Source of the DNA: Candidatus Curtissbacteria bacterium RIFOXYA1_FULL_41_14
GTDB taxonomy: Bacteria > Patescibacteriota > Microgenomatia > Curtissbacterales > GWA2-41-24
Assembly (NCBI GenBank): GCA_001775095.1
Contig: MFCA01000025.1
Span: forward strand, 181,232-245,231
DNA length: 64,000 bases
Direction: 5' to 3'
The notes below the pieces were generated by a model. That model saw only the letters and a list, made by a program, of their open reading frames with translations, made no database searches and had not been told where the DNA came from. This document shows, piece after piece, positions 6,800-55,567 of this stretch (position 1 is its first letter; every line of letters starts with the position of its first letter). Both the position numbers and the translations under genes were made by a program.

Positions 6800-8905
6800 T
6801 CAGGAGGCTTGGGTTTGGGCCTGTATGTATTCCTCAGCGTCTTTTACCAGGACATCGCGGGGTTTTGATCCCTCACCCGGACCAACAATTCCAGCCATTT
6901 CTAACTCATCCAAAAGCCTGGCGGCTCGAGCGTAACCAATACGAAGTCTTCTCTGTAGAAGTGATGCGGAAGCCCTATCATATTGGCAAATTGTCCTCAC
7001 GGCCTCTTCGAAAAATTCATCCTTTGCACCCCCAGTTACGCCAGCAATTTTACCAACAGGCATTTGAGTAACTTCTTCGGTATATTCCGGCTCAATACCT
7101 GATCTTTTGAGAAAGGTAATTAAATTCCTTATCTCGGTATCCGAAACATAAATACCCTGAATTCTTGAAGGTTTTGAAGCATCAGGCGGCACGTAAAGCA
7201 TGTCGCCTTTTCCTAACAACTTCTCGGCACCGGGCTGATCGAGTATAACTCTTGAGTCGACCATTGAAGATACATTAAAGGCAATTCTGCAAGGAATATT
7301 AGCCTTAATTAGTCCAGTAATAACGTCGACAGATGGTCTTTGGGTTGCAACCACCAAATGGACACCGGTGGCCCTAGCCATAGCGGCAAGCCTAACGATG
7401 GCATTTTCAACCTCAACAGGGGCAAATTCCATTAAGTTTTGCAATTCGTCAACAATAATAATGATGTAGGGAAGTGCTTGAAAACCAGAAAGTTCATTAT
7501 ACCCGTTTATATTTCTAACCTGGGCTTCATGAAAGAGTCTGTAGCGTCTATCCATTTCCTGCATAGCCCATTTTAGAGCAGATAGAATTTTTTCAGGCTC
7601 AATAATAACTGGTGTTAATAGGTGAGGAATATCATTATATTCAGAAAGTTCAACACGCTTCGGGTCAACTAGAATAAGCTTAACTTCATGCGGGCTAGCT
7701 CTAAAAAGTAAAGTTGCGATAAAAGAATTTAAAAGAACCGATTTTCCCGAACCGGTCGTGCCGGCGATTAGAACATGGGGCATTCTAGCTATATCGGAAA
7801 TAACTGTGTTGCCTGAAACATCCAAGCCGAGAGCAACTGCCAACTTAGACTTATTGGTACGCAGAGAATCGTCCATCAAAGCATTTTTAAGAGTCACCAT
7901 TTCCGGGCTAAGATTGGGGATTTCTACTCCGACTAGGGATTTTCCGGGAATTGGTGCTTCAATTCTGACATTACCTGTTGAGGTTGCCAAAGCTAGTGCA
8001 AGGTCGTTTTGCAGTGCCAGAACTTTGGAGAGTTTTATGCCCATAGGAATTTCTAGGGCATACTGGGTGACAGTCGGACCAGGATTAACTTCAACAACTT
8101 TGGCGGTTATTCCAAAACTTTCAAGTGTCTTTTCAATTGTTTGGGCGTTATGTTTGACATTACCACGATTCGCAGACAGGCCTTTTGAATCATTAAGAAG
8201 AGATAAGGGAGGATATTGCCAGGCTTGGGTTTGTCCAGGCGCGTTGACGACTACGCTTTGGCCCAAGCCAACGTCTTTTTCTAAAGGTCGATCCTGCGAT
8301 CTTTGCTTCTGATCAACTCTATCGGTTGGCGACTTGATAACAAATTTAGGTTTTCCTAAGCCCAATAATTTAAATATTTTCTCTTGAGAGGACTTCGTTA
8401 GTTTTTTTAATTTTGTGTAAATAGTAACAATTGCATTGACTGCTTGATCGAAACTTGTGTTAAGCGCAATTATCAAAGAGATAAAAAAGGCAAAGAAGAG
8501 TACAAAAAAAGCTCCAACAGGAGTCACCAATGATTTAATAACCAGCCATAAATTAGAACCTAGAAGCCCGGCGAGATTTTCTCCAAAAATAGACATTAGT
8601 GCAATAAATGAAAGCAAGACGCCTAACGAGCCAAGTATTATATTTGGTTTGGAAAAACGGCTTTTTACACCAAGCAATGGTAAGCTAAATGTAATTATCA
8701 AGAATGGAACCAGAAACACGCCAATACCAAACAAATTGTCGAAGTAATCATGAAGCGAAAGTAAAATACCGGTTTGAGTAAAAAAGGATAGAAGAAGAAG
8801 TAAAGATCCTGCCAGCAATACAAAACCTATTATGGTAGAAATTGTTTTCTTCTCGAGAGAAAGTGGCGGATTTTTGTATTTCTTATATCTTCTCATTCTG
8901 GGCAT
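6800..8905 (-). CDS. ftsK: DNA translocase FtsK/SpoIIIE
   Basis: N-terminal TM segments, the motor domain with Walker A GTTGSGKS, and a C-terminal gamma (winged-helix) domain ...LLQRRLRIGYARAARLLDELEMAGIV. Confidence 0.9.
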   Translation of the reverse strand: MPRMRRYKKYKNPPLSLEKKTISTIIGFVLLAGSLLLLLSFFTQTGILLSLHDYFDNLFGIGVFLVPFLIITFSLPLLGVKSRFSKPNIILGSLGVLLSFIALMSIFGENLAGLLGSNLWLVIKSLVTPVGAFFVLFFAFFISLIIALNTSFDQAVNAIVTIYTKLKKLTKSSQEKIFKLLGLGKPKFVIKSPTDRVDQKQRSQDRPLEKDVGLGQSVVVNAPGQTQAWQYPPLSLLNDSKGLSANRGNVKHNAQTIEKTLESFGITAKVVEVNPGPTVTQYALEIPMGIKLSKVLALQNDLALALATSTGNVRIEAPIPGKSLVGVEIPNLSPEMVTLKNALMDDSLRTNKSKLAVALGLDVSGNTVISDIARMPHVLIAGTTGSGKSVLLNSFIATLLFRASPHEVKLILVDPKRVELSEYNDIPHLLTPVIIEPEKILSALKWAMQEMDRRYRLFHEAQVRNINGYNELSGFQALPYIIIIVDELQNLMEFAPVEVENAIVRLAAMARATGVHLVVATQRPSVDVITGLIKANIPCRIAFNVSSMVDSRVILDQPGAEKLLGKGDMLYVPPDASKPSRIQGIYVSDTEIRNLITFLKRSGIEPEYTEEVTQMPVGKIAGVTGGAKDEFFEEAVRTICQYDRASASLLQRRLRIGYARAARLLDELEMAGIVGPGEGSKPRDVLVKDAEEYIQAQTQAS

Positions 8906-8949
8906 ATATTTAATTTTACCTTAAATGTCATTAAATTGCTATAGGGTAC

Positions 8950-10011
8950 TTACCAGGAAGGCAAATATTGCTTTAGATTGTCTTTGGATAAAACTAATCT
9001 TTCGATTTTACCTTCCACTTTTAATTTAGCGATTTTGCGACAAATTCCATTGATCGTCCTGTCCAATGTTCTCATACCTGCATCAAAACCTAAAGGTCTG
9101 ACGATTTCCGGCCAAACTCCTTCTTGAAATTCCAGGTCTTGCTTTGATAAACCTGAAGCAACTATTGCCCTGGGTAGAAGATAGCTTTTGCCGATAATTG
9201 TTTTCTGTTCATCGCTGTAGGAAGGTAACTCAATAAGCTCCAGTCTATCTAAAACTGCTGTGGCGATACCTGCAGTATTATTGGCAGTAGCAATAAACAA
9301 TACTTCACTTAGGTCAAACGGGTAATCTATAAAATGATCAAGGAATTTGCTATTTTGCTCGGGGTCTAAAAGTTCAACCAACACTCCCATAATATCTCCC
9401 TTAGCTTCGTTGGTAATTCTGTCGATCTCGTCAAGAAGAATTACAGGGTTTTTGGTACCAATTCTTCTTAAAACTTTCATGATCTGGCCCGGCTCAGCGT
9501 CGGAGAATGCACGGGATCTTCCTCGAAGTTGCAGTGCCTCCCCCATTCCGCCCATCGGAATTCTTCCAAATTGGCGGCCAAGTGCCTGGGCAATTGAAAA
9601 GGCCATTGTTGTTTTGCCTGTGCCGACCAATCCAACCAAAAGTAAGGCCGGCGCTTTAGTAGAGTGCGGATTTGGATCTTGTTGATTTTGTTTCAAATTA
9701 ACAACAGAAATGTATTCTAAAATTCGTTCTTTGATGTTTTCTAAGCCGTAATGATTAGTGTCTAACACTTTCTTAGCGTGATCAAGGGAAAGAATATCCT
9801 GACTTCGTTTCTCCCAAGGAAGCGCAATAATCCAGTCCAAATATCTGGCGACTTGATCATATTCTTGGGAATAACCTTGAGACGCCGCAAATTTAACTAA
9901 TCTTTCAATTAGTGACTTAGCTCTTTGGTGGAGGTCGGGCGGAATTTTGGCAACATTAAGCTTTGACTCGAGAATCTTAATATCTTCCAGCAAGGCAGGC
10001 GAGGAATTCAC
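8950..10011 (-). CDS. Lon-family AAA+ ATPase domain protein lacking the Lon protease domain
   Basis: Collinear with the Lon ATPase region: YLDWIIALPWEKRS...LDTNHYGLENIKERILEY..LLLVGLVGTGKTT (Walker A)...ILLDEIDR (Walker B)...ELLDPEQNSKFLDHF...IATANN...LDRLELIELPSYSDEQK. The protein ends after the alpha-helical subdomain, with no Ser-Lys protease domain. The start overlaps the upstream ORF by 4 nt (ATGA). Confidence 0.7.
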   Translation of the reverse strand: MNSSPALLEDIKILESKLNVAKIPPDLHQRAKSLIERLVKFAASQGYSQEYDQVARYLDWIIALPWEKRSQDILSLDHAKKVLDTNHYGLENIKERILEYISVVNLKQNQQDPNPHSTKAPALLLVGLVGTGKTTMAFSIAQALGRQFGRIPMGGMGEALQLRGRSRAFSDAEPGQIMKVLRRIGTKNPVILLDEIDRITNEAKGDIMGVLVELLDPEQNSKFLDHFIDYPFDLSEVLFIATANNTAGIATAVLDRLELIELPSYSDEQKTIIGKSYLLPRAIVASGLSKQDLEFQEGVWPEIVRPLGFDAGMRTLDRTINGICRKIAKLKVEGKIERLVLSKDNLKQYLPSW

Positions 10012-22961: not shown

Positions 22962-23681
22962 TTAAACTCCTAAGCTTGATAATAGTTGCGAAAAGTACCT
23001 CATTGTTGGAATAATCACCTGATAATTAAGTCGGGATGGACCTACTACTGCCAAAACGCCCCGGTGACTGGGCATCTGATAACGGGAAATCACGAACCCA
23101 CAAGGCTCAAGATACGGCACGCCCAATTCCTCACCGAAAAGTATTTTTATCTGTTCTTCTGTTGAAAGTTGGCCAAAGATCGCAGAAAGCATCTCTGCTT
23201 TATCAAGCATCGAAAGCACGGTTTTGGTGATATCGATATCGTAAAACTCCGGCATGTCTAAAATATTGGCCATACCAGACGCGTATATATCGTTTTCTTC
23301 GTCAGTTGCCAGTGCCATAGAGTGAGTTTGATCTGCCAAAACCTTGGCGGTATGGCGAAGGAGTTTGTCGAATCTTTCTTTCTTTTCGCCAAGTTCTTCT
23401 TTAATAGCAACTTCATCTTTTAGAGAAAGAGACTTTTCTTCCATCAATTGATCAACATAAAATTTCATACCGACTGATGTAGGAATCCGACCAGCGGAGG
23501 TGTGCGGTTGTCGAAGATAACCAAGGCTGGTCAGTTTAACCATCTCGTTCCTGATGGTTGCCGGCGAAACCCCAAGTTTTGATTCTTTTTCAATAGTTTC
23601 AGAACCGATTGGTTCGGCGGTTTCGATATATTTTTCGATAACTGCACGAAGCAGATTTTTTTGTCGATCAGTAAGGTCCAT
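22962..23681 (-). CDS. hrcA: Heat-inducible transcription repressor HrcA (short form)
   Basis: N-terminal winged HTH MDLTDRQKNLLRAVIEKYIETAEPIGSETI...GVSPATIRNEM..LGYL, as in HrcA. A CIRCE-like operator lies in its promoter. Confidence 0.85.
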   Translation of the reverse strand: MDLTDRQKNLLRAVIEKYIETAEPIGSETIEKESKLGVSPATIRNEMVKLTSLGYLRQPHTSAGRIPTSVGMKFYVDQLMEEKSLSLKDEVAIKEELGEKKERFDKLLRHTAKVLADQTHSMALATDEENDIYASGMANILDMPEFYDIDITKTVLSMLDKAEMLSAIFGQLSTEEQIKILFGEELGVPYLEPCGFVISRYQMPSHRGVLAVVGPSRLNYQVIIPTMRYFSQLLSSLGV

Positions 23682-23815: not shown

Positions 23816-23892
23816 TGTCCAGATACTATACAGTATCTGGTTTAAACAGATATCGTATGGTATCTGTTTAAACGGGTACCGTACGGTGCCTG
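23816..23892. repeat. Three consecutive palindromes in the hrcA 5' leader, of which two are tandem copies of a ~30-bp palindromic unit
   Basis: CCAGATACTatacAGTATCTGG followed by GTTTAAACAGATAtcgtatggTATCTGTTTAAAC, then GGTACCGTACGGTGCC. Units 1 and 2 share CAGATAYYRTAYRGTATCTG plus GTTTAAAC. Confidence 0.55.
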
Positions 23893-23893
23893 T

Positions 23894-23921
23894 TTAGCAG
23901 ACAATGTACCACGAGTGCTAA
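23894..23921. promoter_or_regulatory. CIRCE-like HrcA operator (TTAGCAGAC-N10-GAGTGCTAA) overlapping the hrcA promoter
   Basis: Plus strand reads ttagcagac aatgtaccac gagtgctaa. One half-site matches the CIRCE consensus exactly; the other has 7 of 9 matches, and the spacer is 10 nt rather than 9. Confidence 0.6.
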
Positions 23922-25703: not shown

Positions 25704-27620
25704 TTATAGTTTTAATACCGCAAGGAATGCTTCCTGGGGTATGTCTACTTGGCCGAATCTGCGCATGCGTTTTTTGCCTTTTTTTTGCTTTTCCAAAAGC
25801 TTCATTTTGCGCGTTACGTCGCCACCGTAGAGTTTTTGAGTGACGTCTTTTCTGAAAGATGGCACGGTTTCGCGGGCAATGATTTTACCGCCGATGGCTG
25901 CTTGAATCGGAACTGGAATTTGCTGGCGGGGAATAGCCTCTTTTAACTTTACCACTAAACTTTTGCCAACAGTTTCTGCCTTTTGACGCGGAACAATCTG
26001 GACCAAACCCTCAATTGGCTGATGGTTTACCAGAATATCAAGTTTTACAAGGTCGGCATCTTTATATTCGGTGACTTCAAAATCAAACGAGGCGAAGCCT
26101 GACGTTGCACTTTTTAATTGATCATAGAAACCAATCAATAAATCCAGAAGCGGCATCAAGACTTCGATTTTTAAGGTTTTGCCGATATTTTCGAAATTTA
26201 AAATCTCTCCACGTCTTTCATGAATTAAATTGGAAATTTGTCCATAGAATTTTTCCGGTGCGTAAATTACTACTTTGGCATAGGGCTCCTGAACGTTTTT
26301 TGAAGCAGGATTAAACTGGGATGGTTTGTTAATTATCTTCCCATCTACTTCGAAATTGACTGAGGGTGAAGTCACGATAATATCCAAGTCGTATTCGCGC
26401 TCAAGACGTTCCTGAGTAATTTGGGCATGAAGTAGGCCTAAAAAACCAAGGCGAAATCCTTGCCCTAAGGTGAGTGATGTCTCACTTGAGTATGTCAATG
26501 ATGAGTCGTTTAGTTTTAACTTGTCCAAACCGTCTTTCAATTTGAGTAGCTGGTGCGGATCGGTTGGGTAAAATGACAAAAAAACAACTGGTTTTGCCTC
26601 CTGATAACCGGGTAAAGCCTTAGGATTAAGAGTACCAGAAAGAGAAATCGTATCCCCGACTTTGACTTTTGACAGATCTTTGAGGTTTGTGACGAGAAAA
26701 CCTACTTCGCCACAGAAAAGTTTTTCGACATAAGTTGGTTTTGGAGAAAGATACCCGACTTGCAGGACTTCTGCCTTGGTACGTGTTGCCAGAAATAAAA
26801 TTTGACCACCTACTTTGATTTCACCGTCGAACAGGCGGACAGTAGCGACGACTCCTTTATAAGGATCAAGGGCGGAGTCGAAGATTAGTGCTTGAGTCCC
26901 CTTTTTCACTCCCGGAGTGTTCTCCCGGTGTTGGCCAGATTTCACTCCGGGAGTGTTGGCAGAAGACGAACCGGGTTCGCGCGCTTGCTTTTCGACTGTC
27001 CTTGAACCCGGTTCGGGCCAAGAGTTTGGTGCAGGAATTCGATCAATAATCGCTTTGATAACTGACTCGACATTCTCGCCAGTCTTTGCGGAAACCTTGA
27101 GGATTTCTTCTTCCAAAAATCCTAAACTAATTAATTCTTCCTGAGTTTTTTTTATTTCTGCCTGAGGCATGTCAATTTTGTTAATAACTGGAATTATCAT
27201 TAGATCCGCCTCCTTTGCCAAATTAAAGTTAGCGATCGTCTGAGCTTGGACACCCTGAGTGGCATCGACAATCAGAACTGCCCCTTCAACTGAGGCCAAA
27301 GATCTGGAAACTTCGTAGGAAAAGTCGACATGGCCGGGGGTGTCAATGAGGTTTAGCGTATAAGCAAAGCTTGCGGTCCTCGTCGAGTCAAGACTCGACT
27401 GCGGGCCTAAGGAATTAGCGTCTAGCGTATAGTTAAGACGGATGGCTTTAAGTTTAATAGTGATGCCGTGTTCGCGCTCAAGTTCCAAATTATCCAGAAG
27501 TTGGGCTTGGTGATTTTGAGAAACTGCGCCGCATATTTCCATAATCCTGTCGGCCAAAGTTGACTTGCCGTGATCGATATGGGCAATTAAAGCAAAGTTG
27601 CGGATGCATCTTTGATCCAT
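25704..27620 (-). CDS. lepA: Elongation factor 4 (LepA) carrying an in-frame ~38-aa insertion encoded by palindromic repeats
   Basis: MDQRCIRNFALIAHIDHGKSTLADR..., with all LepA domains including the LepA C-terminal domain. The insertion (WPEPGSRTVEKQAREPGSSSANTPGVKSGQHRENTPGVKK) sits between the conserved RIPAP and ALIFDS segments. Confidence 0.95.
   Translation of the reverse strand: MDQRCIRNFALIAHIDHGKSTLADRIMEICGAVSQNHQAQLLDNLELEREHGITIKLKAIRLNYTLDANSLGPQSSLDSTRTASFAYTLNLIDTPGHVDFSYEVSRSLASVEGAVLIVDATQGVQAQTIANFNLAKEADLMIIPVINKIDMPQAEIKKTQEELISLGFLEEEILKVSAKTGENVESVIKAIIDRIPAPNSWPEPGSRTVEKQAREPGSSSANTPGVKSGQHRENTPGVKKGTQALIFDSALDPYKGVVATVRLFDGEIKVGGQILFLATRTKAEVLQVGYLSPKPTYVEKLFCGEVGFLVTNLKDLSKVKVGDTISLSGTLNPKALPGYQEAKPVVFLSFYPTDPHQLLKLKDGLDKLKLNDSSLTYSSETSLTLGQGFRLGFLGLLHAQITQERLEREYDLDIIVTSPSVNFEVDGKIINKPSQFNPASKNVQEPYAKVVIYAPEKFYGQISNLIHERRGEILNFENIGKTLKIEVLMPLLDLLIGFYDQLKSATSGFASFDFEVTEYKDADLVKLDILVNHQPIEGLVQIVPRQKAETVGKSLVVKLKEAIPRQQIPVPIQAAIGGKIIARETVPSFRKDVTQKLYGGDVTRKMKLLEKQKKGKKRMRRFGQVDIPQEAFLAVLKL
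26896..27018. repeat. GC-rich palindromic mini-element inserted in-frame in lepA (2x CACTCCSGGAGTG and 2x GAACCSGGTTC)
   Basis: cactcccggagtg (26907-26919), cactccgggagtg (26943-26955), gaaccgggttc (26968-26978) and gaacccggttc (27004-27014). Related palindromes recur in metG, pcrA and the AddA-like gene. Confidence 0.7.
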
Positions 27621-32391: not shown

Positions 32392-34251
32392 ATGAATCTC
32401 CTTAAGGATTTAGATCCCGCCCAAGTTGAAGCTGTCAAACAAACAGAAGGACCGGTTTTGATTTTGGCTGGGGCGGGCAGTGGAAAAACACGAGTTTTGA
32501 CATATAAAGTCGCCTATTTAATTTCGCAAGGAGTGAGACCAGAAAATATTCTGGCGGTGACCTTCACAAATAAAGCGGCTAATGAGATGAAGGGGAGAGT
32601 CATAAAGTTATTAGTTCATGGTTCACAGTTCACAGACAGAACCCCCACACCTTATGTCGGTACTTTTCATTCCTTTTGCGCAAAGCTGTTGCGAGTCGAA
32701 GGCAAATATATCGGGATCCCTTCCGGTTATCTAATTTATGATGATGATGACAGTTTAAATTTGGTAAAAAATATCATGAATGAAGAAAGCATCTCGTCTA
32801 AAAATTTTCGGCCGAGTTCGATCTTGGCAGCAATTTCATCGGCAAAAAATGAGTTGGTCTCGTCTTCTGATTATGCCCAATTTGCTCACGGTTATTTTGC
32901 GCAAACCGTGGCGACTGTTTACAAGATTTACCAAAAAGAGCTTGTAAAAATTTACGCCTGTGACTTTGACGATCTATTGGTTAAAAGCGTCGAGGTATTC
33001 AGAAGTAATCCGACGATACTTGATAAATGGGCGAAAAGATTCAGTTATGTTCTGGTCGATGAATACCAGGATGTTAATACTGCCCAGTACATTTTGACAA
33101 AACAGCTTGCCAGCGCGCGTGGCAACTTAACTGTTGTCGGGGATGCCTCGCAGGCGATTTATTCTTTTAGGGGAGCCGATTTTCGCAATATCCTGAATTT
33201 TGAGAGGGATTTTCCCAATTCTAAAATATTTAATCTTGAGCAAAACTACCGATCAACACAAATGATTCTTGACGCAGCCAATGCTGTGATTATCCACAAC
33301 AGTTCACATCCGGTTTTAAAACTTTGGACCAAAAATCCGACCGGCGAAAAAATTGCTCTTTTTAATGCCTCAAGTGAAATTGATGAAGCGAATTTTATCG
33401 TCGAGAGGCTTCTCGATGACATAACAAAGAGACACTACCGGAGTGTGCCCCGAAGTAGCAAAGCGCACTCCGGAAGTGAAAACGGGCCGAGATTCTCTGA
33501 TTTTGCTGTTCTTTATAGAACTAATGCCCAGTCAAGAACTGTCGAGGAAGCATTTTTGCATTCCAATATTCCCTATCGGCTTTACGGGGGCGTGCGTTTT
33601 TACGGGCGCAAGGAAGTTAAAGACGTATTGGCTTATCTGCGCCTAATCGCCAACTCCAAGGACAAAATCGCCAAGGACAGAGTCGAAAAATTAGGCAAAA
33701 AACGCTTTGAAAAATTCCAAGAATTGAAAAAGGATCCGCACCTCGAAAAATTCTCACCGATAGAGCTTATTGATAAGGTACTTGAGACAACCGATTATTT
33801 AGCACTTATTGATGACGGTTCTGAGCAGGGCTTAGCACGGGTTGAAAACGTCAAAGAATTAAAATCTGTGGCTGCTGATTTTGAAAATCTTAGCAGCTTT
33901 TTAGAAAATGTGGCTTTGATGGAAGGAATGGTTACACCGGAAAAATCGTACGAGAATAAGGAGGAATCAGACGTAGTAACACTTATGACTATTCATTCTG
34001 CCAAAGGTTTGGAGTTTGACAATGTTTTTATTATAGGTATGGAAGAAGGTTTATTTCCGCATTCGCGAAGTATGCTGGATCCGTCTCAGATTGAGGAGGA
34101 AAGAAGACTTGCCTACGTTGGAATGACGCGGGCTAAAAAGAAACTTTATCTGACTTATGCGACTAACAGATTATACTTCGGAACCCACAGCGCCAATTTA
34201 GTTTCGCGGTTTGTGGTGGATATACCGGAAGAATTAATTACGGCAATTTAG
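32392..34251 (+). CDS. pcrA: UvrD/PcrA-type ATP-dependent DNA helicase with a short repeat-encoded in-frame insertion
   Basis: Walker A AGAGSGKTRVLTYKVAYLI, with helicase motifs through VLYRTNAQSR and the C-terminal GLEFD...MTRAKKKLYL. The insertion is around aa 345-365 (RHYRSVPRSSKAHSGSENGPR). Confidence 0.9.
   Translation: MNLLKDLDPAQVEAVKQTEGPVLILAGAGSGKTRVLTYKVAYLISQGVRPENILAVTFTNKAANEMKGRVIKLLVHGSQFTDRTPTPYVGTFHSFCAKLLRVEGKYIGIPSGYLIYDDDDSLNLVKNIMNEESISSKNFRPSSILAAISSAKNELVSSSDYAQFAHGYFAQTVATVYKIYQKELVKIYACDFDDLLVKSVEVFRSNPTILDKWAKRFSYVLVDEYQDVNTAQYILTKQLASARGNLTVVGDASQAIYSFRGADFRNILNFERDFPNSKIFNLEQNYRSTQMILDAANAVIIHNSSHPVLKLWTKNPTGEKIALFNASSEIDEANFIVERLLDDITKRHYRSVPRSSKAHSGSENGPRFSDFAVLYRTNAQSRTVEEAFLHSNIPYRLYGGVRFYGRKEVKDVLAYLRLIANSKDKIAKDRVEKLGKKRFEKFQELKKDPHLEKFSPIELIDKVLETTDYLALIDDGSEQGLARVENVKELKSVAADFENLSSFLENVALMEGMVTPEKSYENKEESDVVTLMTIHSAKGLEFDNVFIIGMEEGLFPHSRSMLDPSQIEEERRLAYVGMTRAKKKLYLTYATNRLYFGTHSANLVSRFVVDIPEELITAI
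33430..33480. repeat. Palindromic mini-element inside pcrA (CACTACCGGAGTG ... CACTCCGGAAGTG)
   Basis: cactaccggagtg at 33434-33446 and cactccggaagtg at 33466-33478. Same family as the lepA and metG inserts. Confidence 0.6.
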
Positions 34252-39531: not shown

Positions 39532-40122
39532 TTAGGAAATTCTGTAGAGGAAAATTTCGTTTTCTGATTTTAAAGGCTTTTTTTTAGGGAATGCATTAGT
39601 ATTGACCACAATTCGCGCTCCCCTTTTGGCGTTTTGAAAGACGAAATCTTCGAATTTCTGCATGGTTTTTTTGCGGCCGTAGACAAAAATGACATCAGCA
39701 ATTTTAAGATTAGCTTTCCAGAGATTCTGGCGTTTTACGATGACACTCCCTGTCATTCTGGCTTGTCCAGAATCGATTCTGGAGTCGCTTCGCTCCCCAG
39801 AATGACAAGAAGGAAATAGAAAGTAAGCTTTAACTTTGGTAAAGACAATTAAAAATGGATTGATTTCGTAGCCAACAGCGTGGACGCCAGACTTGGCTGC
39901 TGCAAATAAAAGCCGGCCGTCTCCGGAACCAAGATCAACAACAGTCTCGCCCTTTTTAATATTGGCAAGTCTAATAATCGTTCCTATCTTTTCCTTCTTT
40001 GTAGCAACGTAGGGAAGATCTAAGAACAAATCAATGGCAAATAAAAAGAAGGTAATAATGACAAAAAGAAGTAAAAAGATGATGAGTAATAAGAGAACCG
40101 AGATAATGATTATCATAAACAA
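39532..40122 (-). CDS. Membrane-anchored class I SAM-dependent methyltransferase carrying an in-frame repeat insertion
   Basis: N-terminal TM, then VVDLGSGDGRLLFAAAKSGVHAVGYEINPF. A TGTCATTCTGG...CCAGAATGACA element (39751-39807) encodes ...SCHSGERSDSRIDSGQARMTGSV... within the ORF. Confidence 0.6.
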   Translation of the reverse strand: MFMIIIISVLLLLIIFLLLFVIITFFLFAIDLFLDLPYVATKKEKIGTIIRLANIKKGETVVDLGSGDGRLLFAAAKSGVHAVGYEINPFLIVFTKVKAYFLFPSCHSGERSDSRIDSGQARMTGSVIVKRQNLWKANLKIADVIFVYGRKKTMQKFEDFVFQNAKRGARIVVNTNAFPKKKPLKSENEIFLYRIS

Positions 40123-40123
40123 T

Positions 40124-40250
40124 ATCCTATCATCAAATTGACCTAATTGATCTAATATCAGCTAAACTTCATTAGATTTTTAATATTAATTACAATAAAT
40201 AATTGAAGTTTAGCTGATATTAGAAATTAGAGTAATTAGAAATTTATGAC
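40124..40250. repeat. Dispersed ~130-bp repeat, copy 1 (CCTAATTGATCTAAT flank plus an 18-bp-arm hairpin ATATCAGCTAAACTTCA...TGAAGTTTAGCTGATAT)
   Basis: Copy 2 is at 57175-57260 with the same flanks and arms, but the ~30-nt loop is in the reverse-complement orientation. The TTAGAAATTAGAG tail is also shared. Confidence 0.6.
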
Positions 40251-40357: not shown

Positions 40358-43300
40358 TCAACTTATTTTAGCTAAACTAAATGGACAGATTGCGTTATAA
40401 GCGCAGTAATTGCATGCAGGCACGCGGCCGAAGTATTTGGGATTGGCAACAAAATTGTTGTTTTTTGTGTCCCGGCGGATGTTTTCGGCCGTTTCTAAAA
40501 TTAAATTTTCGGTTTTTTCCAAATCCGCCTTAGTGGGACTGTATGAACCTTCAATCCCCGTTTCTAAAAAATGCAGAGTTACTTTTTCGGGAATAATTTG
40601 ATGACGCTTCCAGTAATTTAGGGCGTAAATAGAAAGTTGTGTTGACTCTTTGGCTTGAGCGTTAGCCCGATCCTCGTCGATATTTTCAGATGATTTATAA
40701 TCTATAATCGTCACTTTACTGCCAAGTCTAATATCTACCCGGTCAAAACGGCCGGTAACAATGACATTTTTTAGGGGAAAATCGAATCTTGCTTCAATCA
40801 GTGTTGGGATATCTTTATTTCTTGCCTCTCGTCTGTAAAATGAGGAAATCGCCAACTTGCCTTGGGCTTTTCGTTTTTCTTCATGCTCAATTGATAAAAA
40901 TCCCTCGCTGTCCCAGGCATTTTCAAATACTTCCAGAACTTGCGGCAGAGTCAAGTTTTTGCCGTTTTTCTTGGATCTTAAGAAGGCGGCAACAGCAGCA
41001 TGCAGTGCCGCGCCGTAAACTATCGCGTGATGACGGAGAATTGGCACACGCAAAATATGGATATAACGATATTTGTAAGCACAGGTCAAATAGTCGTCGA
41101 TTGATCCTTGAGTCAGTTTTAAAACGCTTGTATCAAAAAGAGCTGTCTGAAGACTACGAGCTGGAGTCGGCGCAAATTTTTCGATTTTTTCGACTGGCGA
41201 AAGTCTGGCCGGTGTCGCATCCGTTTTTGGCTTATCTTGAGCCTCCAGAACAAAAGGTGAGACTTTTTTAACTCTCTTGCCGCCGATATCCCTCGAGTGG
41301 GAAAAATACAGTAAATCTTTGGCCCGCGTCATCCCGACATAAAAAAGGCGCCTTTCCTCTTCCTGATGCCAATCGCCTGTTGGCAGTGTTTCTTTGATTA
41401 GTTCTTCGGGAATATCGATTACGTCACCGCGCTGACGTGTTGGAAAATGATCAGAGACCAGATTCACCAGAAAAACAACCCGGAATTCTAAACCTTTGGC
41501 TCCATGAACCGTCATAACATTAACAGCATCCAATTCCGGATCAAATTCAATTGTTGCCGGATCATCGCCTGCCCCACGGATTGCTTCCAGATAATCAACA
41601 AATTGGCTAACTTTCTGGCCGCGGGCAACGTCGGTGAATTCTTTAATCTTGTCGAAAAATTTGGCGATATTTTGAATTTTAATCTGTCCTTCGACTCCTC
41701 CGGTTCTTTCAAGCTTCTTGAGATAACCTGTTCTTTTCAGAAAATCATAAGTAACCCGGCCGACATTTTCACTTCTTCCCAGTTTGATTGACTCCTCAAG
41801 ATCCAAAAGGACTTTATCAATGATTGCTTTTGACTGGTCTGAAATTTCAAGATCATCATGTGAAGCCGAGGCCTGAGGCAGGTTTTTTAGAACATAATAG
41901 AGGGAACGAGTTTTACGACGGGCAAAGGAAGCCAGTTTAATAGCGTCGGTCGGCGGTATTTGGTAAATGTCCGAGGTGATTAAGTTATACAGATTAAGAC
42001 TGTCTTCGAAATCGGAAATTGCGCCTAAAAAAGAAATCAAAAGAGCAATTTCTTCCTGTTGATAAAGGCCTGAGGAGCCGACAAATTTATGGGGAATTCC
42101 TTTCATGTTTAAGGCTCTTAAGAAATGGTCGGCTGCAGCATTGGCACGAACAAGGATGGCAAAATCTTTGTAGTTGTAACGTGTTACTTGTCGCTTGTTA
42201 CGTGTTGCCATTAATTTTTCGATTTCGGAAGCTACAAGATCTGCTTCTTCAGAAATGGTGTCGGCAAATATTTCCTGAGGTGGAATACCTTTTCCTGTTC
42301 TTATTTTACCCCTGGGGTGCGCTGAGTTATGGCCCGGCACACCCCAGGGGTGTATCGATTTGAGTTTTTTGTCGATTCTATTTTGAACTTCGAGTCTGTC
42401 CGGGTCGTTGTGTCTGATTAGTCTATAGGCGCTATCCAAAGTTGGCTGGGTTGAGCGGTAATTTTGAGTCAAAACAACTTGTTTTGCTTTTGGAAAATCT
42501 TTGACGAATTCTAAAATATTGGAAATGGCAGCTCCGCGGAATTTGTAGATAGATTGATCATCATCACCAACGACACAAATATTCTTGTGATTTCTGGCCA
42601 ATATTTTAACCAGTTCATTTTGAGCGTAGTTGGTATCTTGATATTCATCGACCAGAATATATTTAAATTGCTCCTGATATTTACTTAAGATTTTGGGTCT
42701 TTTTTGGAAAAGTTCAATGGTTTTAACAACCTGATCGCCAAAATCCAAAAATCCGGCTTCGTCTTTTAATTTCTCATACATCTCAAAAGCGCCAGCCAGC
42801 TCCTGATATTTCTTTGACTCGATTTTTGACTCTTTGTCTTTAGTCCGCCGGTCTTCGACCCTGAGGCTCAGACCCGAAGGGCTGACGGATTGCGTTAAGC
42901 GTTTAGCGTATAGCGAAAACTCTTTCGGATTTATATTTTCGTCTTTCAGACGCGAAAAAAAAGAAAGGACTGCTGAAATAAATTTTGTCGGATTAGAAAG
43001 AGGCCGCCAGTAATCCAATTGGAACCTAAAAAGATTTTGCTGAAAAAACAATACCTGCTGGGGTCGGGAAAGAATCTTGAAATCCGGTGAAAGACCGATA
43101 TCAAAAGCGTTGTCTCTGAGAATTCGGTCACCAAAGGCATGAAAGGTAGAAATCCAGGTATCGATAAAACCGTATGGGACTAAAATGTCAACTCGTTCTT
43201 CCATTTCACCGGCAGCTTTATCAGTGAAAGTTAAAGCCAAGATTTCTGAGGGTTTGGCCAGTTTCTTTTCGATAATATAGGCGATCCTTCTGGCGATAAC

Positions 43301-43477
43301 GGCAGTCTTGCCTGTACCGGCACCGGCAATAATCAAAAGCGGACCTTCGGTAGTTGTTACTGCTTCTTTTTGCTGTGGATTTAAATTTTTGAGGATCCCA
43401 CTATCCTTACTTCTCGCCTTTTCACTATTGTTCATAGACGGCTCGAAGAGCGAATTTGAGGGACGAGTATCACTCAC
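40358..43477 (-). CDS. AddA/UvrD-like helicase fused to a C-terminal PD-(D/E)XK nuclease with Cys4 (Fe-S) motifs
   Basis: Walker A AGAGTGKTAV and UvrD helicase motifs. The C-terminus has Cas4/AddB-like Cys residues (..DYLTCAYKYRYIHIL... and CNYCAYNAICPF). An internal palindromic insert is at 42308-42353. Confidence 0.85.
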   Translation of the reverse strand: MSDTRPSNSLFEPSMNNSEKARSKDSGILKNLNPQQKEAVTTTEGPLLIIAGAGTGKTAVIARRIAYIIEKKLAKPSEILALTFTDKAAGEMEERVDILVPYGFIDTWISTFHAFGDRILRDNAFDIGLSPDFKILSRPQQVLFFQQNLFRFQLDYWRPLSNPTKFISAVLSFFSRLKDENINPKEFSLYAKRLTQSVSPSGLSLRVEDRRTKDKESKIESKKYQELAGAFEMYEKLKDEAGFLDFGDQVVKTIELFQKRPKILSKYQEQFKYILVDEYQDTNYAQNELVKILARNHKNICVVGDDDQSIYKFRGAAISNILEFVKDFPKAKQVVLTQNYRSTQPTLDSAYRLIRHNDPDRLEVQNRIDKKLKSIHPWGVPGHNSAHPRGKIRTGKGIPPQEIFADTISEEADLVASEIEKLMATRNKRQVTRYNYKDFAILVRANAAADHFLRALNMKGIPHKFVGSSGLYQQEEIALLISFLGAISDFEDSLNLYNLITSDIYQIPPTDAIKLASFARRKTRSLYYVLKNLPQASASHDDLEISDQSKAIIDKVLLDLEESIKLGRSENVGRVTYDFLKRTGYLKKLERTGGVEGQIKIQNIAKFFDKIKEFTDVARGQKVSQFVDYLEAIRGAGDDPATIEFDPELDAVNVMTVHGAKGLEFRVVFLVNLVSDHFPTRQRGDVIDIPEELIKETLPTGDWHQEEERRLFYVGMTRAKDLLYFSHSRDIGGKRVKKVSPFVLEAQDKPKTDATPARLSPVEKIEKFAPTPARSLQTALFDTSVLKLTQGSIDDYLTCAYKYRYIHILRVPILRHHAIVYGAALHAAVAAFLRSKKNGKNLTLPQVLEVFENAWDSEGFLSIEHEEKRKAQGKLAISSFYRREARNKDIPTLIEARFDFPLKNVIVTGRFDRVDIRLGSKVTIIDYKSSENIDEDRANAQAKESTQLSIYALNYWKRHQIIPEKVTLHFLETGIEGSYSPTKADLEKTENLILETAENIRRDTKNNNFVANPKYFGRVPACNYCAYNAICPFSLAKIS
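42308..42353. repeat. Palindromic mini-element inside the AddA-like CDS (ACCCCTGGGGTGCGC ... GCACACCCCAGGGGT)
   Basis: 15-bp inverted arms whose cores are themselves palindromic (CCCCTGGGG / CCCCAGGGG), with a 13-nt loop. It encodes ...HPWGVPGHNSAHPRG... in frame. Confidence 0.55.
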
Positions 43478-49882: not shown

Positions 49883-49942
49883 ACCCTATTCGTCATTCTG
49901 AGCGAAGTCGAGTCCTAATTCGACAAAGCGAGGAATCTTGAC

Positions 49943-50515
49943 TCAATCTAAAAATCTAAAGGTTGCGAGGATTTGGCTCAAATTTTGGCCGGATATATTC
50001 ATTATTCTATCGCTTGAAATAGAAATTATTACATGGCTTTCTGAAATTTTTATGGCTTTTCTACTTGCTACCGTTATTTCTTTAGCGTTAGGATAGTAGT
50101 CTTTTCTTATTTTATCGACTGTATCGCCTTGTGCTCCAAAACCGAATATAAAAACTTCGTTTCCTTTATGATCACCGTCGCTGTGATCTGCTTTTGTACC
50201 TTCCATAAAAAAACTAACGTTTTCTTCTTGAGGAAGCCAGGAGGGACTTTCATAAAACCAGTTAGGAGGATATTTGAAGACAAAGTATTTGTTTTCATAG
50301 ATTTTCCAATTTGCTGTTTCCGCGGAACCATTCGGTTCACGGCCAGCGTCTGAAATTGGACTGGGTTGGGCTTGAACCGACGGTTCGGAACTTGGAGTTG
50401 ATTTGTTTTTGATGTTTTTGAGGAGAGTAGTGTTGAAATAAAGAGTTAATGCCACGCCAAGAGTAATCAGGGCGAGAATAATCATTACCGGAGGAGTTAA
50501 ATATCCCCTTCTCAT
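49943..50515 (-). CDS. Paralog family member 1: secreted/anchored protein with a conserved signal anchor, an ETANWK-YPxxW motif and a C-terminal QILATFRFLD
   Basis: MRRGYLTPPVMIILALITLGVALTLYFNTTLLKNIKNKSTPSSEPS... is nearly identical at DNA level to the N-terminus of 53138..53791. The C-terminal motif is shared with all three paralogs. Confidence 0.6.
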   Translation of the reverse strand: MRRGYLTPPVMIILALITLGVALTLYFNTTLLKNIKNKSTPSSEPSVQAQPSPISDAGREPNGSAETANWKIYENKYFVFKYPPNWFYESPSWLPQEENVSFFMEGTKADHSDGDHKGNEVFIFGFGAQGDTVDKIRKDYYPNAKEITVASRKAIKISESHVIISISSDRIMNISGQNLSQILATFRFLD

Positions 50516-52963: not shown

Positions 52964-53137
52964 ATTTTAATTATCCAACACGTACAAAAAAATGTCAAGT
53001 ATTATGTACATTATACTGTCATTCTGAGCCTTTCGCCGGTCACTCTGAATCCTTCGATTGTCATTCTGAACGTAGTGAAGAATCTCAGGGTAAACTCCGT
53101 AAAGGGTCTCAAGATAAACTCCGCGAAGAATCTTGAT

Positions 53138-53791
53138 TCAGTCTAAAAATCTGAACGTTGAGAGGATTTGGTCAAAAACTTGCTCATGATTACCCTGAAA
53201 ATCTAAATTGGGATAACTAATCATATATTGATTGCTGTTATGATTAACATAAACTCTAGCTTCTTTTCTGCGGGGTCCTTCGGATTTTTCAGTTGTTATA
53301 TTAACAACACCTTTCTCACCTGCAACTTCGAAACTTGTGAAGGTGTCGTATTTTGTAGATTTTGGTAATGGTCCGTAATCGGGGTCTTCAGGTATTGGTT
53401 GAACATAGACATAAAAATCCGCTGGTAGAACATCACCAAAAAAACAATCTGCAAGTGCCGTTTTATTTACAAAAAGATAGCCTCGAATACCCTTGTCGCA
53501 AGGTGGAGTTTCATTATCGTAAACAAACCAACTGGAAGGGTACTTGATCGAGAACCCCAACTGGGTGTTTGTATATGTTTTCCAATTTGCTGTTTCCGCG
53601 GAATCATTCGGTTCACGGCCAGCGTCTGAAATTGGACTGGGTTGGTCTTGAACCGACGGTTCGGAACTTGGAGTTGATTTGTTTTTGATGTTTTTTAGAA
53701 GATTTGTGTTGAAATAAAGAGTTAATGCCACGCCAAGAGTAATCAGGGCGAGAATAATCATTACCGGAGGAGTTAAATATCCCCTTCTCAT
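53138..53791 (-). CDS. Paralog family member 3 (same signal anchor, ETANWKTY...KYPSSW motif and C-terminal FDQILSTFRFLD)
   Basis: The first ~60 aa are nearly identical to 49943..50515. The central ~120 aa are divergent. Its 3' flank repeats the 3' flank of paralog 1. Confidence 0.6.
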   Translation of the reverse strand: MRRGYLTPPVMIILALITLGVALTLYFNTNLLKNIKNKSTPSSEPSVQDQPSPISDAGREPNDSAETANWKTYTNTQLGFSIKYPSSWFVYDNETPPCDKGIRGYLFVNKTALADCFFGDVLPADFYVYVQPIPEDPDYGPLPKSTKYDTFTSFEVAGEKGVVNITTEKSEGPRRKEARVYVNHNSNQYMISYPNLDFQGNHEQVFDQILSTFRFLD

Positions 53792-53853
53792 ACTTTCATC
53801 ATTTCACTTCCTGTTTTTAAACACAATTGGCATAGTGAGAATCTAATCAATAT

Positions 53854-53916
53854 TGTCATTCCGAACTTGCTTCGGAATCTAACTCCCGAAGTGGGAAGTT
53901 GGAAGTGAGAATGTAG
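53854..53916. repeat. TGTCATTCCG hairpin element (TGTCATTCCGAACTTGCTTCGGAATC ... GTGAGAATGTAG) in the divergent promoter region
   Basis: Inverted repeat ATTCCGAA cttgc TTCGGAAT. Same terminal motif as the elements at 39751, 49886, 53025, 58984 and 63449. Confidence 0.55.
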
Positions 53917-54079
53917 ATATTGTGGTGGGATGTGGGAAGAAAACAAAATCCCACTTCTCATATCATTAATCCTTTAATCCCATTTCTCACCTCTCACTTC
54001 ATAGATTCTGGATCCTGAATCGAGTTCAGGATGACAAAAGGGCATAGGTTTTGGAACCGTTTCATACTATAATTTGCTC

Positions 54080-55567
54080 ATGGTGAAACGAATATACATT
54101 ACTACTGCGATTCCGTACGTTAATGCAGCGCCGCATATTGGTTTTGCTTTGGAGGCCGTGCAGGCGGATTGTCTGGCGCGGTTCTATCGAGCGATTGGCT
54201 ATGACGTTTATTTTTCAACTGGAACGGACGAGAACAGCCTCAAAAATGTCCAGGCAGCGGAAGCTGAGGGTATTCCCGTCCAAAAACTGGTCGATAAATA
54301 CGCCAAACAGTTTGAACATCTGAAAGGGGCTTTAAATCTCTCCTGGGATGTCTTTATCAGAACCAGTAACCAGACACACTTTGTGGGTGCCCAGAAACTA
54401 TGGAGTCTTTGCAACAAAGATATTTATAAGAAGAAATATCGGGGCCTTTATTGCGTTGGCTGTGAATTGTTTTACTCCCCTGGCGAACTGATTGACGGAA
54501 AGTGTCCTGAGCATCAAACGATACCGGAGGAAGTCGAAGAAGAAAATTATTTTTTTGCTCTCTCAAAGTATCAAGAATATCTGGAGAAATTGATTGCCAC
54601 GGATAAATTGCGGATTACGCCGATAAGTCGGAAGAATGAGGTTTTGTCATTTATTAAAAGAGGGCTTGAGGATTTTAGTATTTCAAGATCAGTTGCGAGG
54701 TCAAGAGGCTGGGGAGTACCGGTCCCTGGTGACCAGAGTCAAGTTCAATATGTCTGGTTTGATGCCTTGACTAACTACCTAACAGCACTGGGTTTTGGGA
54801 ATGATGAAACTCTATACAAAAAATATTGGGCTGATTCCCCTAGATCCACTCCAGGAGTGAGCTTAGTTACATCCCGGCACACTCCGGGAGTGAACAAAGA
54901 CCGAGTAACTCGCCTGCATGTCATCGGTAAAGGCATTATCAGATTTCATGCAATCTATTGGCCGGCCATGCTAGCTTCAGCCGGACTTCCCCTGCCAAAT
55001 GAGGAGTTTGTCCATGGCTACATTACAGTAGAAGGACAAAAGATTTCCAAGTCACTTGGAAATGTAATTGATCCTTTCGAATTAACCGAAAAATTTGAGG
55101 TTGATCCTGTCCGCTACTTTCTGCTTAGGGAAATTCCTGCCTGGGGCGATGGTGATTTTTCGATTATCAGATTTAAAGAGCTTTACAATGGCGAACTGGC
55201 CAATGGTTTGGGAAATTTAGTGGCCAGAGTAGCTAGACTTTGTGCGGATGTGAATTTGAATTTACCGTCGAAAAAGAATTTTAAATTTAAAAAAGTGGTC
55301 AGTGACAACCTAAAAAACTTCCGTTTTGATCTTGCGTTACTTTCTCTTTGGGACGATATTTCTTCTCTTGATAAAAAAATAAATGAGGAAAAACCTTGGG
55401 AACTTGAGGGTAAAACCCTGAAAAAAGCAATTTCACCCATTGCCCAACAAATCCGCGAGGTTGCTTTTAATTTAAGTCCGTTTTTACCGGAAACTTCTGA
55501 AAAGATCATTGAACACTTTACTGGCACGGTTAAACAACAAGCTCCGCTCTTTCCCCGCCTTCACTAA
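54080..55567 (+). CDS. metG: Methionine--tRNA ligase (catalytic core) with an in-frame repeat-encoded insertion; likely leaderless (TATAAT at 54068-54073)
   Basis: HIGH motif PHIGFA and KMSKS as KISKSLGN, with a zinc-knuckle-like C..C..C region. The track ORF starts at the TTG at 54074, and the ATG at 54080 is preferred. Insertion: DSPRSTPGVSLVTSRHTPGVNKDRVTR, just before the conserved HVIGKGIIRFH. Confidence 0.9.
   Translation: MVKRIYITTAIPYVNAAPHIGFALEAVQADCLARFYRAIGYDVYFSTGTDENSLKNVQAAEAEGIPVQKLVDKYAKQFEHLKGALNLSWDVFIRTSNQTHFVGAQKLWSLCNKDIYKKKYRGLYCVGCELFYSPGELIDGKCPEHQTIPEEVEEENYFFALSKYQEYLEKLIATDKLRITPISRKNEVLSFIKRGLEDFSISRSVARSRGWGVPVPGDQSQVQYVWFDALTNYLTALGFGNDETLYKKYWADSPRSTPGVSLVTSRHTPGVNKDRVTRLHVIGKGIIRFHAIYWPAMLASAGLPLPNEEFVHGYITVEGQKISKSLGNVIDPFELTEKFEVDPVRYFLLREIPAWGDGDFSIIRFKELYNGELANGLGNLVARVARLCADVNLNLPSKKNFKFKKVVSDNLKNFRFDLALLSLWDDISSLDKKINEEKPWELEGKTLKKAISPIAQQIREVAFNLSPFLPETSEKIIEHFTGTVKQQAPLFPRLH
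54838..54912. repeat. Palindromic mini-element inside metG (CACTCCAGGAGTG ... CACTCCGGGAGTG ... GAGTAACTC)
   Basis: cactccaggagtg at 54847-54859 and cactccgggagtg at 54880-54892. The same 13-mer palindrome occurs in lepA. Confidence 0.65.

Follow-up and report, generated by a model that had tools for sequence, protein, structure and literature searches.

In-frame palindrome doublets in four genes of a Curtissbacteria genome: probable REP doublets of a clade of RAYT transposases

A stretch of 64,000 nucleotides of contig MFCA01000025.1 (hereafter the window), from a Candidatus Curtissbacteria population (Microgenomates, candidate phyla radiation (CPR)) from Rifle, carries short GC-rich palindromes, arranged in pairs, within four genes: lepA, pcrA, a gene for an AddA/AdnB-like helicase-nuclease, and metG. 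With a probability of roughly 0.7, these pairs are doublets of repetitive extragenic palindromic (REP) sequences, similar to the REP doublets forming hairpins known as REPINs, which belong to a clade of REP-associated tyrosine transposases (RAYTs) and persist in frame at permissive loops of their host proteins. Every copy represents an in-frame insertion peculiar to its lineage and placed in a loop or an inter-domain linker; RAYT genes of other genomes have these palindromes, or close relatives of them, on either side; and the palindromic arms are kept far better than the spacers between them, compensatory changes included. Mobility is inferred from the distribution of the copies. An initial annotation of this DNA had described a mobile element tolerated as a loop insertion in essential genes; the analysis supports such an element and refines it to REP/REPIN sequences of a RAYT clade. 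The word essential does not apply in general, as lepA and addA are not known to be generally essential.

The host genes, the doublets and the inserts that contain them are as follows, in coordinates of the window.

25704..27620, minus strand: host gene lepA (elongation factor 4)
26898..27017, minus strand: LepA insert in full, some 40 codons (residues ~202-241), within the G domain/domain II linker
26907..26955, minus strand: candidate REP doublet in lepA, type B, consisting of CACTCCCGGAGTG, a 23-nt spacer starting ttctcc, and CACTCCGGGAGTG; 13-mer copies at 26907-26919 and 26943-26955
26967..27015, strand undefined: second lepA doublet, consisting of CGAACCGGGTTCG, a 23-nt spacer and TGAACCCGGTTCG; GAACCSGGTTC copies at 26968-26978 and 27004-27014
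32392..34251, plus strand: host gene for a pcrA/uvrD-family helicase
33421..33480, plus strand: PcrA insert, about 19 extra codons relative to Curtissbacteria orthologues, with approximate boundaries
33433..33478, minus strand: type A candidate REP doublet in pcrA/uvrD, antisense, with 20 nt between its 13-mers; copies at 33433-33445 (CACTACCGGAGTG) and 33466-33478 (CACTCCGGAAGTG), with 1-2 mismatches each
40358..43477, minus strand: host gene for a UvrD-type helicase-nuclease (AddA/AdnB-like)
42307..42352, plus strand: candidate REP doublet in the AddA/AdnB-like gene, type A, antisense to the gene, arms compensated; 13-mer copies at 42307-42319 (TACCCCTGGGGTG) and, after 20 nt, 42340-42352 (CACCCCAGGGGTG)
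54074..55567, plus strand: host gene metG (methionyl-tRNA synthetase, MetRS)
54839..54904, plus strand: MetRS insert, about 22 extra codons just before the HVIGKGI strand, boundaries +/- about 2 codons
54847..54892, plus strand: candidate REP doublet in metG, type A, sense, consisting of CACTCCAGGAGTG, 20 nt and CACTCCGGGAGTG; 13-mer copies at 54847-54859 and 54880-54892

The degenerate pattern CACYCCNGGRGTG catches four pairs, with first bases at 26907 and 26943, 33433 and 33466, 42307 and 42340, and 54847 and 54880. Their period is 36 bp in lepA and 33 bp in the other three genes, and an intact open reading frame (ORF) surrounds every pair, as had been claimed. The positions first given for lepA, metG and the second pcrA copy proved exact, while the first pcrA copy had been placed one base off. 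Together with the second lepA doublet, built on GAACCSGGTTC, there are five doublets in four gene loci; the 13-mer reported earlier at "five places" is a real repeat, but neither the number of loci nor the idea of one repeat kind stands. The 13-mers have a GC content of 62-73% against about 40% for the window, so the contrast once drawn between GC-rich repeats and an AT-rich genome is right as to the repeats, the window itself being only moderately AT-rich. An exhaustive listing of palindromes in the window gave no paired GC-rich 13-mers other than those described, an nhmmer profile of the type A units found the four known loci and no further copies, and neither Rfam matches nor tRNA genes were found in the window. 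At 53881-53960, in the long intergenic stretch ahead of metG, a lone degenerate 13-mer (AACTCCCGAAGTG) precedes inverted repeats of the GGGAAGT / CCCACTTCTC type.

The length of the motif, which is short, is all that speaks for chance or an assembly artefact as the source of the pairs, and this explanation is already refuted, with next to no probability left to it. With up to two mismatches allowed, CACTCCGGGAGTG has 13 strand-matches in the window against 0.51 expected, a number reached by none of 100 shuffles. Likewise, a scan of 596 Gb, in which each species was represented by a single genome, for exact matches to CACTCCNGGAGTG-N16-26-CACTCCNGGAGTG yielded 55 loci against about 0.03 expected, an estimate that assumes uniform composition; the excess over chance that had been named as a test is thus found both in the window and at large. 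The identical LepA protein is also encoded on contig MFCG01000011.1 of GCA_001775235.1 and on ENA and JGI contigs of 210-266 kb, and occurs in 98 blocks of the collection; at all four places examined in separate NCBI, ENA and JGI records, the doublet DNA is the same. GAACCSGGTTC alone is not above chance in the window (2 found, and 2 are reached by 19 of 100 shuffles). Its pair has the 36-bp period and the CCSGG centre in common with the first lepA doublet and encodes EPGS..EPGS; since no other copy of the doublet occurs in 145 other fetched loci, it cannot be shown to form a repeat family.

The copies in metG, the AddA-like gene and pcrA align end to end as a 46-nt unit (type A: 13-mer, 20-nt spacer, 13-mer), with a spacer common to the three genes of approximately (a/c)gcttaGtTAc.tcCcGGCA, and the lepA copy is a weaker match to this profile (type B). 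According to nhmmer, the element lies on the plus strand of the window in metG and the AddA-like gene and on the minus strand in lepA and pcrA. Relative to the genes, the metG and lepA copies are sense and encode TPGV, and the pcrA and AddA-like copies are antisense and encode H-Y/S-R/G-S and H-P-W/R-G, respectively. Thus the coding strand of the lepA doublet reads NTPGV-KSGQHRE-NTPGV and the metG doublet translates as TPGVSLVTSRHTPGV, the AddA-like doublet as HPWGVPGHNSAHPRG, and the pcrA doublet, the arms of which are slightly decayed, as HYRSVPRSSKAHSGS. Since both orientations and two reading frames are used, the repeats are DNA-level and not protein-level; lengths that preserve the frame, together with the lack of stop codons, imply that the inserts are translated.

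As single-stranded DNA (ssDNA), each unit forms one long hairpin with a stem of 12-16 bp and a loop of 14-23 nt, in line with the folding that had been proposed as a check. The CACYCC doublets fold at -12.9 to -16.5 kcal/mol, with z scores of -3.9 to -7.1 (lepA, -15.9 kcal/mol and z -5.4; pcrA, -14.9 and -7.1; AddA-like, -16.5 and -3.9; metG, -12.9 and -4.5), and the second lepA doublet at -13.6 kcal/mol with z -2.3. Ten 13-mers in 64 kb, folding well below shuffles, agree with the definition of a REP as a repeated GC-rich palindrome able to form a stem-loop, whereas the qualifier extragenic does not suit the window copies, four of four loci lying within ORFs. Among the type A copies, identity is 92% in the arms and 61% in the spacers. 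No direct repeat indicative of target-site duplication stands beside the four window copies, and their sole inverted repeat is their arms, unlike miniature inverted-repeat transposable elements (MITEs); nor do the flanks of any copy hold a conserved GTAG or CGTC tetranucleotide, as tagged REPs do.

That the doublets add residues is seen most fully in LepA. HMMER alignment to Thermus EF4 (5imq) splits at query residues 205-242, between the G domain and domain II, which leaves unaligned the 38 residues of the insert first reported, while the segment from NS to GTQ amounts to 40. In an AlphaFold2 model (mean pLDDT 79.5), residues 202-238, which come after helix 184-194 and before strand 243-252, are modelled as coil at a pLDDT below 50, and the insert is predicted to be a disordered linker. 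We compared 120 orthologue proteins of the Curtissbacteria type. In 80 of them, the linker from R(I/V)P.P to ALIFDS is insert-free and at most 14 residues long (usually 8-12); an NTPGV..NTPGV insert is present in 8, an RPGL..KAWP insert in 10 (P0018, P0024, P0025, P0027, P0028, P0032, P0043, P0049, P0079 and P0105), and a CGTC-like RHSERSEES..QDD insert in about 18. Three palindrome families scattered over the Curtissbacteria tree are found in this one linker, and the TPGV type stands at no fewer than six separate positions, with insert-free sisters at each, in a neighbour-joining tree built without the insert columns, which is indicative only. At the DNA level, CACTCCSGGAGTG pairs are present in the lepA genes of L147 and L148, GTTAAGGCCAGGCCTTAAC with a degenerate second copy in that of L150, and a CGTCATTCTGAGC.. 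element in that of L151. In lepA of L149, both copies are CACCCCSGGGGTG, a fourfold compensated change from CACTCC to CACCCC that is synonymous for TPGV. Orthologues that share the extra LepA residues thus share the palindromic DNA, and the interpretation as an insertion is not refuted by them. The DNA of the RPGL..KAWP type, (A)AGGCC-N-GGCCT(T), is built on a CCNGG core and makes up a third 13-mer family, at an estimated position of about 10600-10670 in L150. Just upstream of lepA in L148, another Curtissbacteria contig, positions 8045-9723 carry genes for an RVT_1 reverse transcriptase and for bAvd, both hallmarks of a diversity-generating retroelement.

Extra residues relative to the family pattern, as claimed from the start, are likewise confirmed by orthologues and solved structures for MetRS and PcrA, and by solved structures only for the AddA-like protein. 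The PcrA orthologues of L147, L017 and L151 are without the insert, which lies directly upstream of a conserved DFAVLYRTNAQSR segment and across which the alignment to 1pjr shows gaps totalling 17 residues; L017 PcrA has a CACTCC doublet of its own, at a different site of the protein. From FDALTNY to IGKGIIRFH, this MetRS measures 64 residues, compared with mostly 38-43 (range 29-53) in 99 of the 100 best 50%-cluster representatives; the sole MetRS of comparable length (P0404, 63 residues) carries a different insert, and alignments to 2csx and 4dlp break at the insert point, in keeping with the mapping onto structures suggested beforehand. The AddA/AdnB-like protein has approximately 16-20 extra residues around residues 311-318 in a structure-based comparison with PcrA. 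At the pcrA/uvrD position of the syntenic loci, L149 holds an ORF (1007-1825) with only a faint LAGLIDADG_3 match, which hints at a putative intein or homing endonuclease in the helicase gene.

The conservation of the arms raises the question of whether the hairpins are kept for a role of the nucleic acid itself, such as slowing of the ribosome for folding, mRNA stability or protein binding, in which case they would be exapted REPs and not passengers. In LepA orthologues about 70% identical, the arms are perfect or compensated at synonymous sites while the spacers drift, the LepA and PcrA inserts lie at inter-domain linkers, and the use of a single LepA linker by three palindrome families across lineages would fit as well. 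Nevertheless, recent or repeated insertion, or recognition by a transposase, would conserve the arms equally; two thirds of the LepA orthologues lack an insert altogether, related genomes differ in the host genes and sites, and at the Omnitrophota locus L030 the doublets lie between genes, as ordinary REPs. We therefore regard such a role as unlikely.

The 55 loci of the scan place the doublet in several phyla. Among Microgenomates, it was found in Curtiss-, Beckwith-, Davies- and Gottesmanbacteria, in addition to one Patescibacteria metagenome-assembled genome (MAG) with 15 copies; other carriers are Acidobacteriota, Planctomycetales, Omnitrophota, Makaraimicrobium, Anaerolineaceae and a few Proteobacteria and Actinobacteria. 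Spacer and flanks differ lineage by lineage. The centre bases of the two palindromes are complementary in 41 of 53 distinct doublets, the same in 12 and unrelated in none, where chance would leave about half unrelated, so that the doublets are mostly inverted; with spacers of 20-23 nt in the window, this is the architecture of a REPIN, namely two inverted REPs around a short spacer. In the low-GC Microgenomates loci, the doublets usually lie within long ORFs. The hosts, named from their translations, include PcrA, UvrB (two genomes), a class I aminoacyl-tRNA synthetase and a RarA-like ATPase, as well as, named likewise and with no family search, two glycosyltransferases and the C-terminus of ribosomal protein L15. 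In the Patescibacteria MAG H41-bin253_1, the doublet is part of a longer, MITE-like unit that has inverted repeats of its own at the termini (ggacttacgcaaatt .. aatttgcgtaagtcc) and is present in at least 13-15 copies on separate contigs (loci L008, L010, L015, L016, L021, L029, L034, L035, L037, L049-L051 and L057).

These hosts also bear on the idea that selection acts on the protein, a useful TPGV..TPGV peptide module having been acquired. TPGV is the frame read in LepA of eight Curtissbacteria lineages and again in MetRS, and the change in L149 is synonymous. Against this, another frame and strand are used in pcrA and the AddA-like gene (HYRS.., HPWG..), in other genomes, UvrB and PcrA read the doublet as HSRS.., Omnitrophota have it between genes, it flanks transposase genes, and the LepA insert is predicted to be disordered. 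Frame and strand usage have already largely refuted protein-level selection, which we consider very improbable.

The doublet is connected to transposases by L054, a Planctomycetales locus in which gGTACACTCCCGGAGTGTACc lies directly upstream and downstream of an ORF that matches PF01797 Y1_Tnp with 30.2 bits (cut-off 23) and NCBIfam NF047646, 'REP-associated tyrosine transposase', with 66 bits, below its cut-off of 80. Homologues of this ORF number more than 6900 at E <1e-10; most belong to Omnitrophota, others to Patescibacteria, Elusimicrobia and Berkelbacteria. Across the clade, PTH(V/I/F)H and RYIHLNP are invariant or nearly so, and in the PDB E. coli TnpA-REP (4er8) matches it best, better than the IS200/IS605 transposases do. 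The features that define a RAYT, i.e., the Y1_Tnp fold, the HUH and tyrosine motifs and a closer relation to TnpA-REP than to IS200 TnpA, are all present in L054, L060, L063 and L066. Three Patescibacteria members were taken with their flanks: those of L060 and L066 are bracketed by CACCCCWGGGGTG, the variant (CACCCC) of the AddA-like gene in the window, and one Patescibacteria RAYT gene is bracketed by CACCCGNCGGGTG. In 80 metagenomic RAYT loci, a perfect CACNCN-N-NGNGTG lies within 200 nt of the gene on both sides in 21 and on one side only in none, and roughly 60 of the 80, judged by eye from a listing, have a CACC..GGTG-type palindrome on both sides, approximately 25-150 nt (mostly 35-60) upstream of the start and at most about 30 nt (mostly 0-20) downstream of the stop. 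Flanking of RAYT genes by the palindrome is the REPtron arrangement as described (PMC3733652, PMC5581495), and it is found in other genomes, not in the source genome.

The unit consists of two inverted 13-bp GC-rich palindromes (CACYCC-N-GGRGTG) around a spacer of 20-23 nt. On the preferred reading, the palindrome family would be cognate to a clade of RAYTs (HUH/Y1) that occurs in Omnitrophota, Patescibacteria, Elusimicrobia and Planctomycetes. Such a RAYT may recognize the ssDNA hairpin in trans and copy the doublet to new sites without target duplication, a step that we infer by analogy with the TnpA of IS200/IS605 and E. coli TnpA-REP. Where genes are dense and intergenic space is scarce, a copy would survive if it kept the frame, held no stop codon and fell into a permissive surface loop or flexible linker, and it would then be translated as a short disordered peptide (TPGV.. 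or HSxS..).

Several points weigh against this reading. Searches of the window and of the 9.5 kb past its start, which together cover roughly 74 kb of the genome, and of other Curtissbacteria loci gave no RAYT gene. They used tblastn, at first with IS200 and RayT probes and then with actual members of the clade; among L005-L059, a RAYT turned up in L054 alone, L147-L151 and L152 gave nothing, and none of the best 120 of the more than 6900 homologues is labelled Curtissbacteria. Given this negative result, the window copies may now be relics, the pcrA copy being visibly decayed. The RAYT link of the CACTCC variant rests on the single Planctomycetales locus L054. The nearest LepA relative is only 73-74% identical; furthermore, the 9.5 kb beyond the window start hold no doublet, copy density being uneven. 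The clade, with its W-E, THVH and YIHLNP features and a length of about 220 residues, resembles subclass 2.1 / Group 1, to judge from motifs only, and RAYTs of that group have little or no REP association (PMC6006769 Table 1; PMC5581495). The elements also lack the GTAG or CGTC tag of most described REPs, and are shorter than classical REPs (a 13-bp, near-perfect core) and intragenic instead of extragenic.

The same lack of a RAYT near any Curtissbacteria copy would suit a local origin of the pairs by template switching, quasi-palindrome correction or gene conversion, with neither a transposase nor true mobility. The spacers hold partial third copies of the core (e.g., ttCTCCCGGtGTt in lepA), as local duplication would give, and P0093 LepA holds a single copy where P0088 LepA holds two, which fits recombination between direct repeats. 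Such processes leave unexplained, however, an identical 13-mer with related 20-nt spacers in unrelated genes of different species, the occurrence of the 13-mer in many phyla, and the two-sided flanking of RAYT genes with no one-sided case among 80 loci. We accordingly think a purely local origin quite improbable, and continue with REP doublets of a RAYT clade as the preferred reading.

Compared with REPs and REPINs (Bertels and Rainey 2011; Nunvar 2010; Ton-Hoang 2012; Messing 2012), the window elements have in common the GC-rich palindromes, the inverted doublets and the longer hairpin. In REP doublets, the two palindromes are mostly 20-100 bp apart, and the spacing here is likewise short; as in REP/RAYT systems, one palindrome stands on both sides of a Y1/HUH transposase gene. 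In Curtissbacteria and Beckwithbacteria, most of the copies observed are intragenic, unlike extragenic REPs. Intragenic REPs as such have been reported by Di Nocera, De Gregorio and Rocco (2013), who found that, as dimers, they encode 20-30 residues, mostly in replication and repair genes (UvrA/B/D, RecBCD, DnaE) and tRNA synthetases (PMC3733652), and linkers are known to tolerate in-frame REP insertions (Quentin et al. 2018). The likeness extends to the 20-30 encoded residues and to the UvrD/Rep helicase, RecB-type nuclease, Uvr and tRNA synthetase hosts. As intragenic REPs in repair and tRNA synthetase genes, including UvrD, RecB and Uvr, were already described, the phenomenon itself is known, and not as rare as the initial annotation had taken it to be. 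What differs here is that host, the untagged 13-bp core, the mainly intragenic location in Microgenomates and the subclass 2.1/Group 1-like clade. Literature searches on the exact 13-mers returned nothing relevant, and among the papers listed by further searches none treats REP/RAYT together with CPR, Patescibacteria or Omnitrophica.

The initial annotation had compared the elements to Rickettsia palindromic elements (RPEs), reportedly described by Ogata et al. in 2000. The comparison is apt insofar as, in a small genome, palindromic repeats have entered unrelated genes in frame, at permissive positions where surface peptides are tolerated, and the window copies behave in this way; they work like RPEs, but there is no evidence that they are members of the RPE family. 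RPE-1 is roughly 100-150 bp and thus longer than the elements here, no common motif is evident, a direct alignment not having been made, and the two are set apart by their descriptions (length, tag). We know of no dedicated transposase for RPEs, unlike the window palindrome family, which flanks RAYT genes. HIP1 of cyanobacteria, an 8-mer that is dense through genes and creates no insertions, is also a short over-represented palindrome tolerated in coding sequence in several frames, whereas the elements here are discrete doublets of about 50-110 bp that add residues. The R. conorii elements RPE-4 and RPE-6 are themselves CGTC-tagged REPs (PMC3733652). MITEs such as the Coxiella QMITEs (PMC5896051) are similarly small, non-autonomous repeats able to extend or interrupt ORFs, and differ from the window elements, which have no terminal inverted repeats distinct from the core and no visible target-site duplication. 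Among other candidates, a CRISPR-like array was ruled out by the shortness of the units and the presence of two copies only, and an intein or intron by shortness and by translation through the element. A CIRCE or LexA operator was rejected for its spacing. A restriction-site carrier was considered, the CCNGG core being suggestive, and set aside.

A broader proposition, which we put forward tentatively and hold to be possible at best, is that this RAYT clade has its own untagged 13-bp REP family (CACNCN-N-NGNGTG), the REPINs of which are mainly intragenic in gene-dense Microgenomates, hit permissive linkers such as that of LepA repeatedly, and serve CPR proteins broadly as a source of loop insertions, perhaps with some function of the hairpin retained. 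If the proposition is true, a clade marked by THVH / YIHLNP, similar to Group 1 / subclass 2.1 and so far regarded as largely REP-less, would gain REPs. Independently of it, the doublets provide a concrete source at the DNA level for some of the unexplained insertions for which CPR proteins are known. They also tie a very large and little-studied RAYT clade to a searchable REP sequence, which makes transposase-REP specificity testable in vitro. In annotation, the peptides NTPGV..NTPGV, HSRSxxxxHSGS, RPGL..KAWP and RHSERSEES of Microgenomates are best taken as translated repeats and not as conserved protein motifs. The use of one LepA linker by three palindrome families and the REP-RAYT pairing in a huge uncharacterized clade are the points most worth following.

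Other repeats of the window belong to different types. A second family (GTCATTCTG..) looks CGTC-like. Within ORF 39532-40122 (minus strand), positions 39746-39812 hold a palindromic ccctGTCATTCTGGcttgTCCAGAATCGATTCTGGAgtcgcttcgctcCCCAGAATGACaag that encodes ..SCHSGERSDSRIDSGQARMTGS.. in a protein of 196 residues, whose sequence suggests a methyltransferase; this palindromic family looks like the CGTC-tagged REP type (PMC3733652). Intergenic copies and clusters of this same repeat, (C)GTCATTCTGA.., for example tCGTCATTCTGAGCGAAGTCGAG..GCGAGGAATCTTGA, are located at 49890-49945, 53017-53135, 53853-53893 and 54003-54037, with three tandem GTCA(T/C)TCTGA units at 53018-53069; with up to one mismatch, GTCATTCTGR has 23 matches in the window against 7.2 expected. 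Two ORFs on the minus strand that adjoin CGTC-type repeats (49943-50515 and 53138-53791, of 190 and 217 residues) have TTCCGCGGAA and GAACCGACGGTTC in common at a spacing of 56 bp (50318/50374 and 53594/53650) and may be paralogues. Nested palindromes on GTTTAAAC(A/G)G..CTGTTTAAAC occupy 23840-23896, in the divergent intergenic region beside hrcA (22962-23681, minus strand), and do not seem to fit the CIRCE consensus. Finally, an AT-rich inverted repeat with perfect arms of 21 nt (TCTAATATCAGCTAAACTTCA) encloses a loop of 32 nt at 40151-40171 / 40204-40224, in the intergenic region between ORF 39532-40122 and the AddA-like gene.

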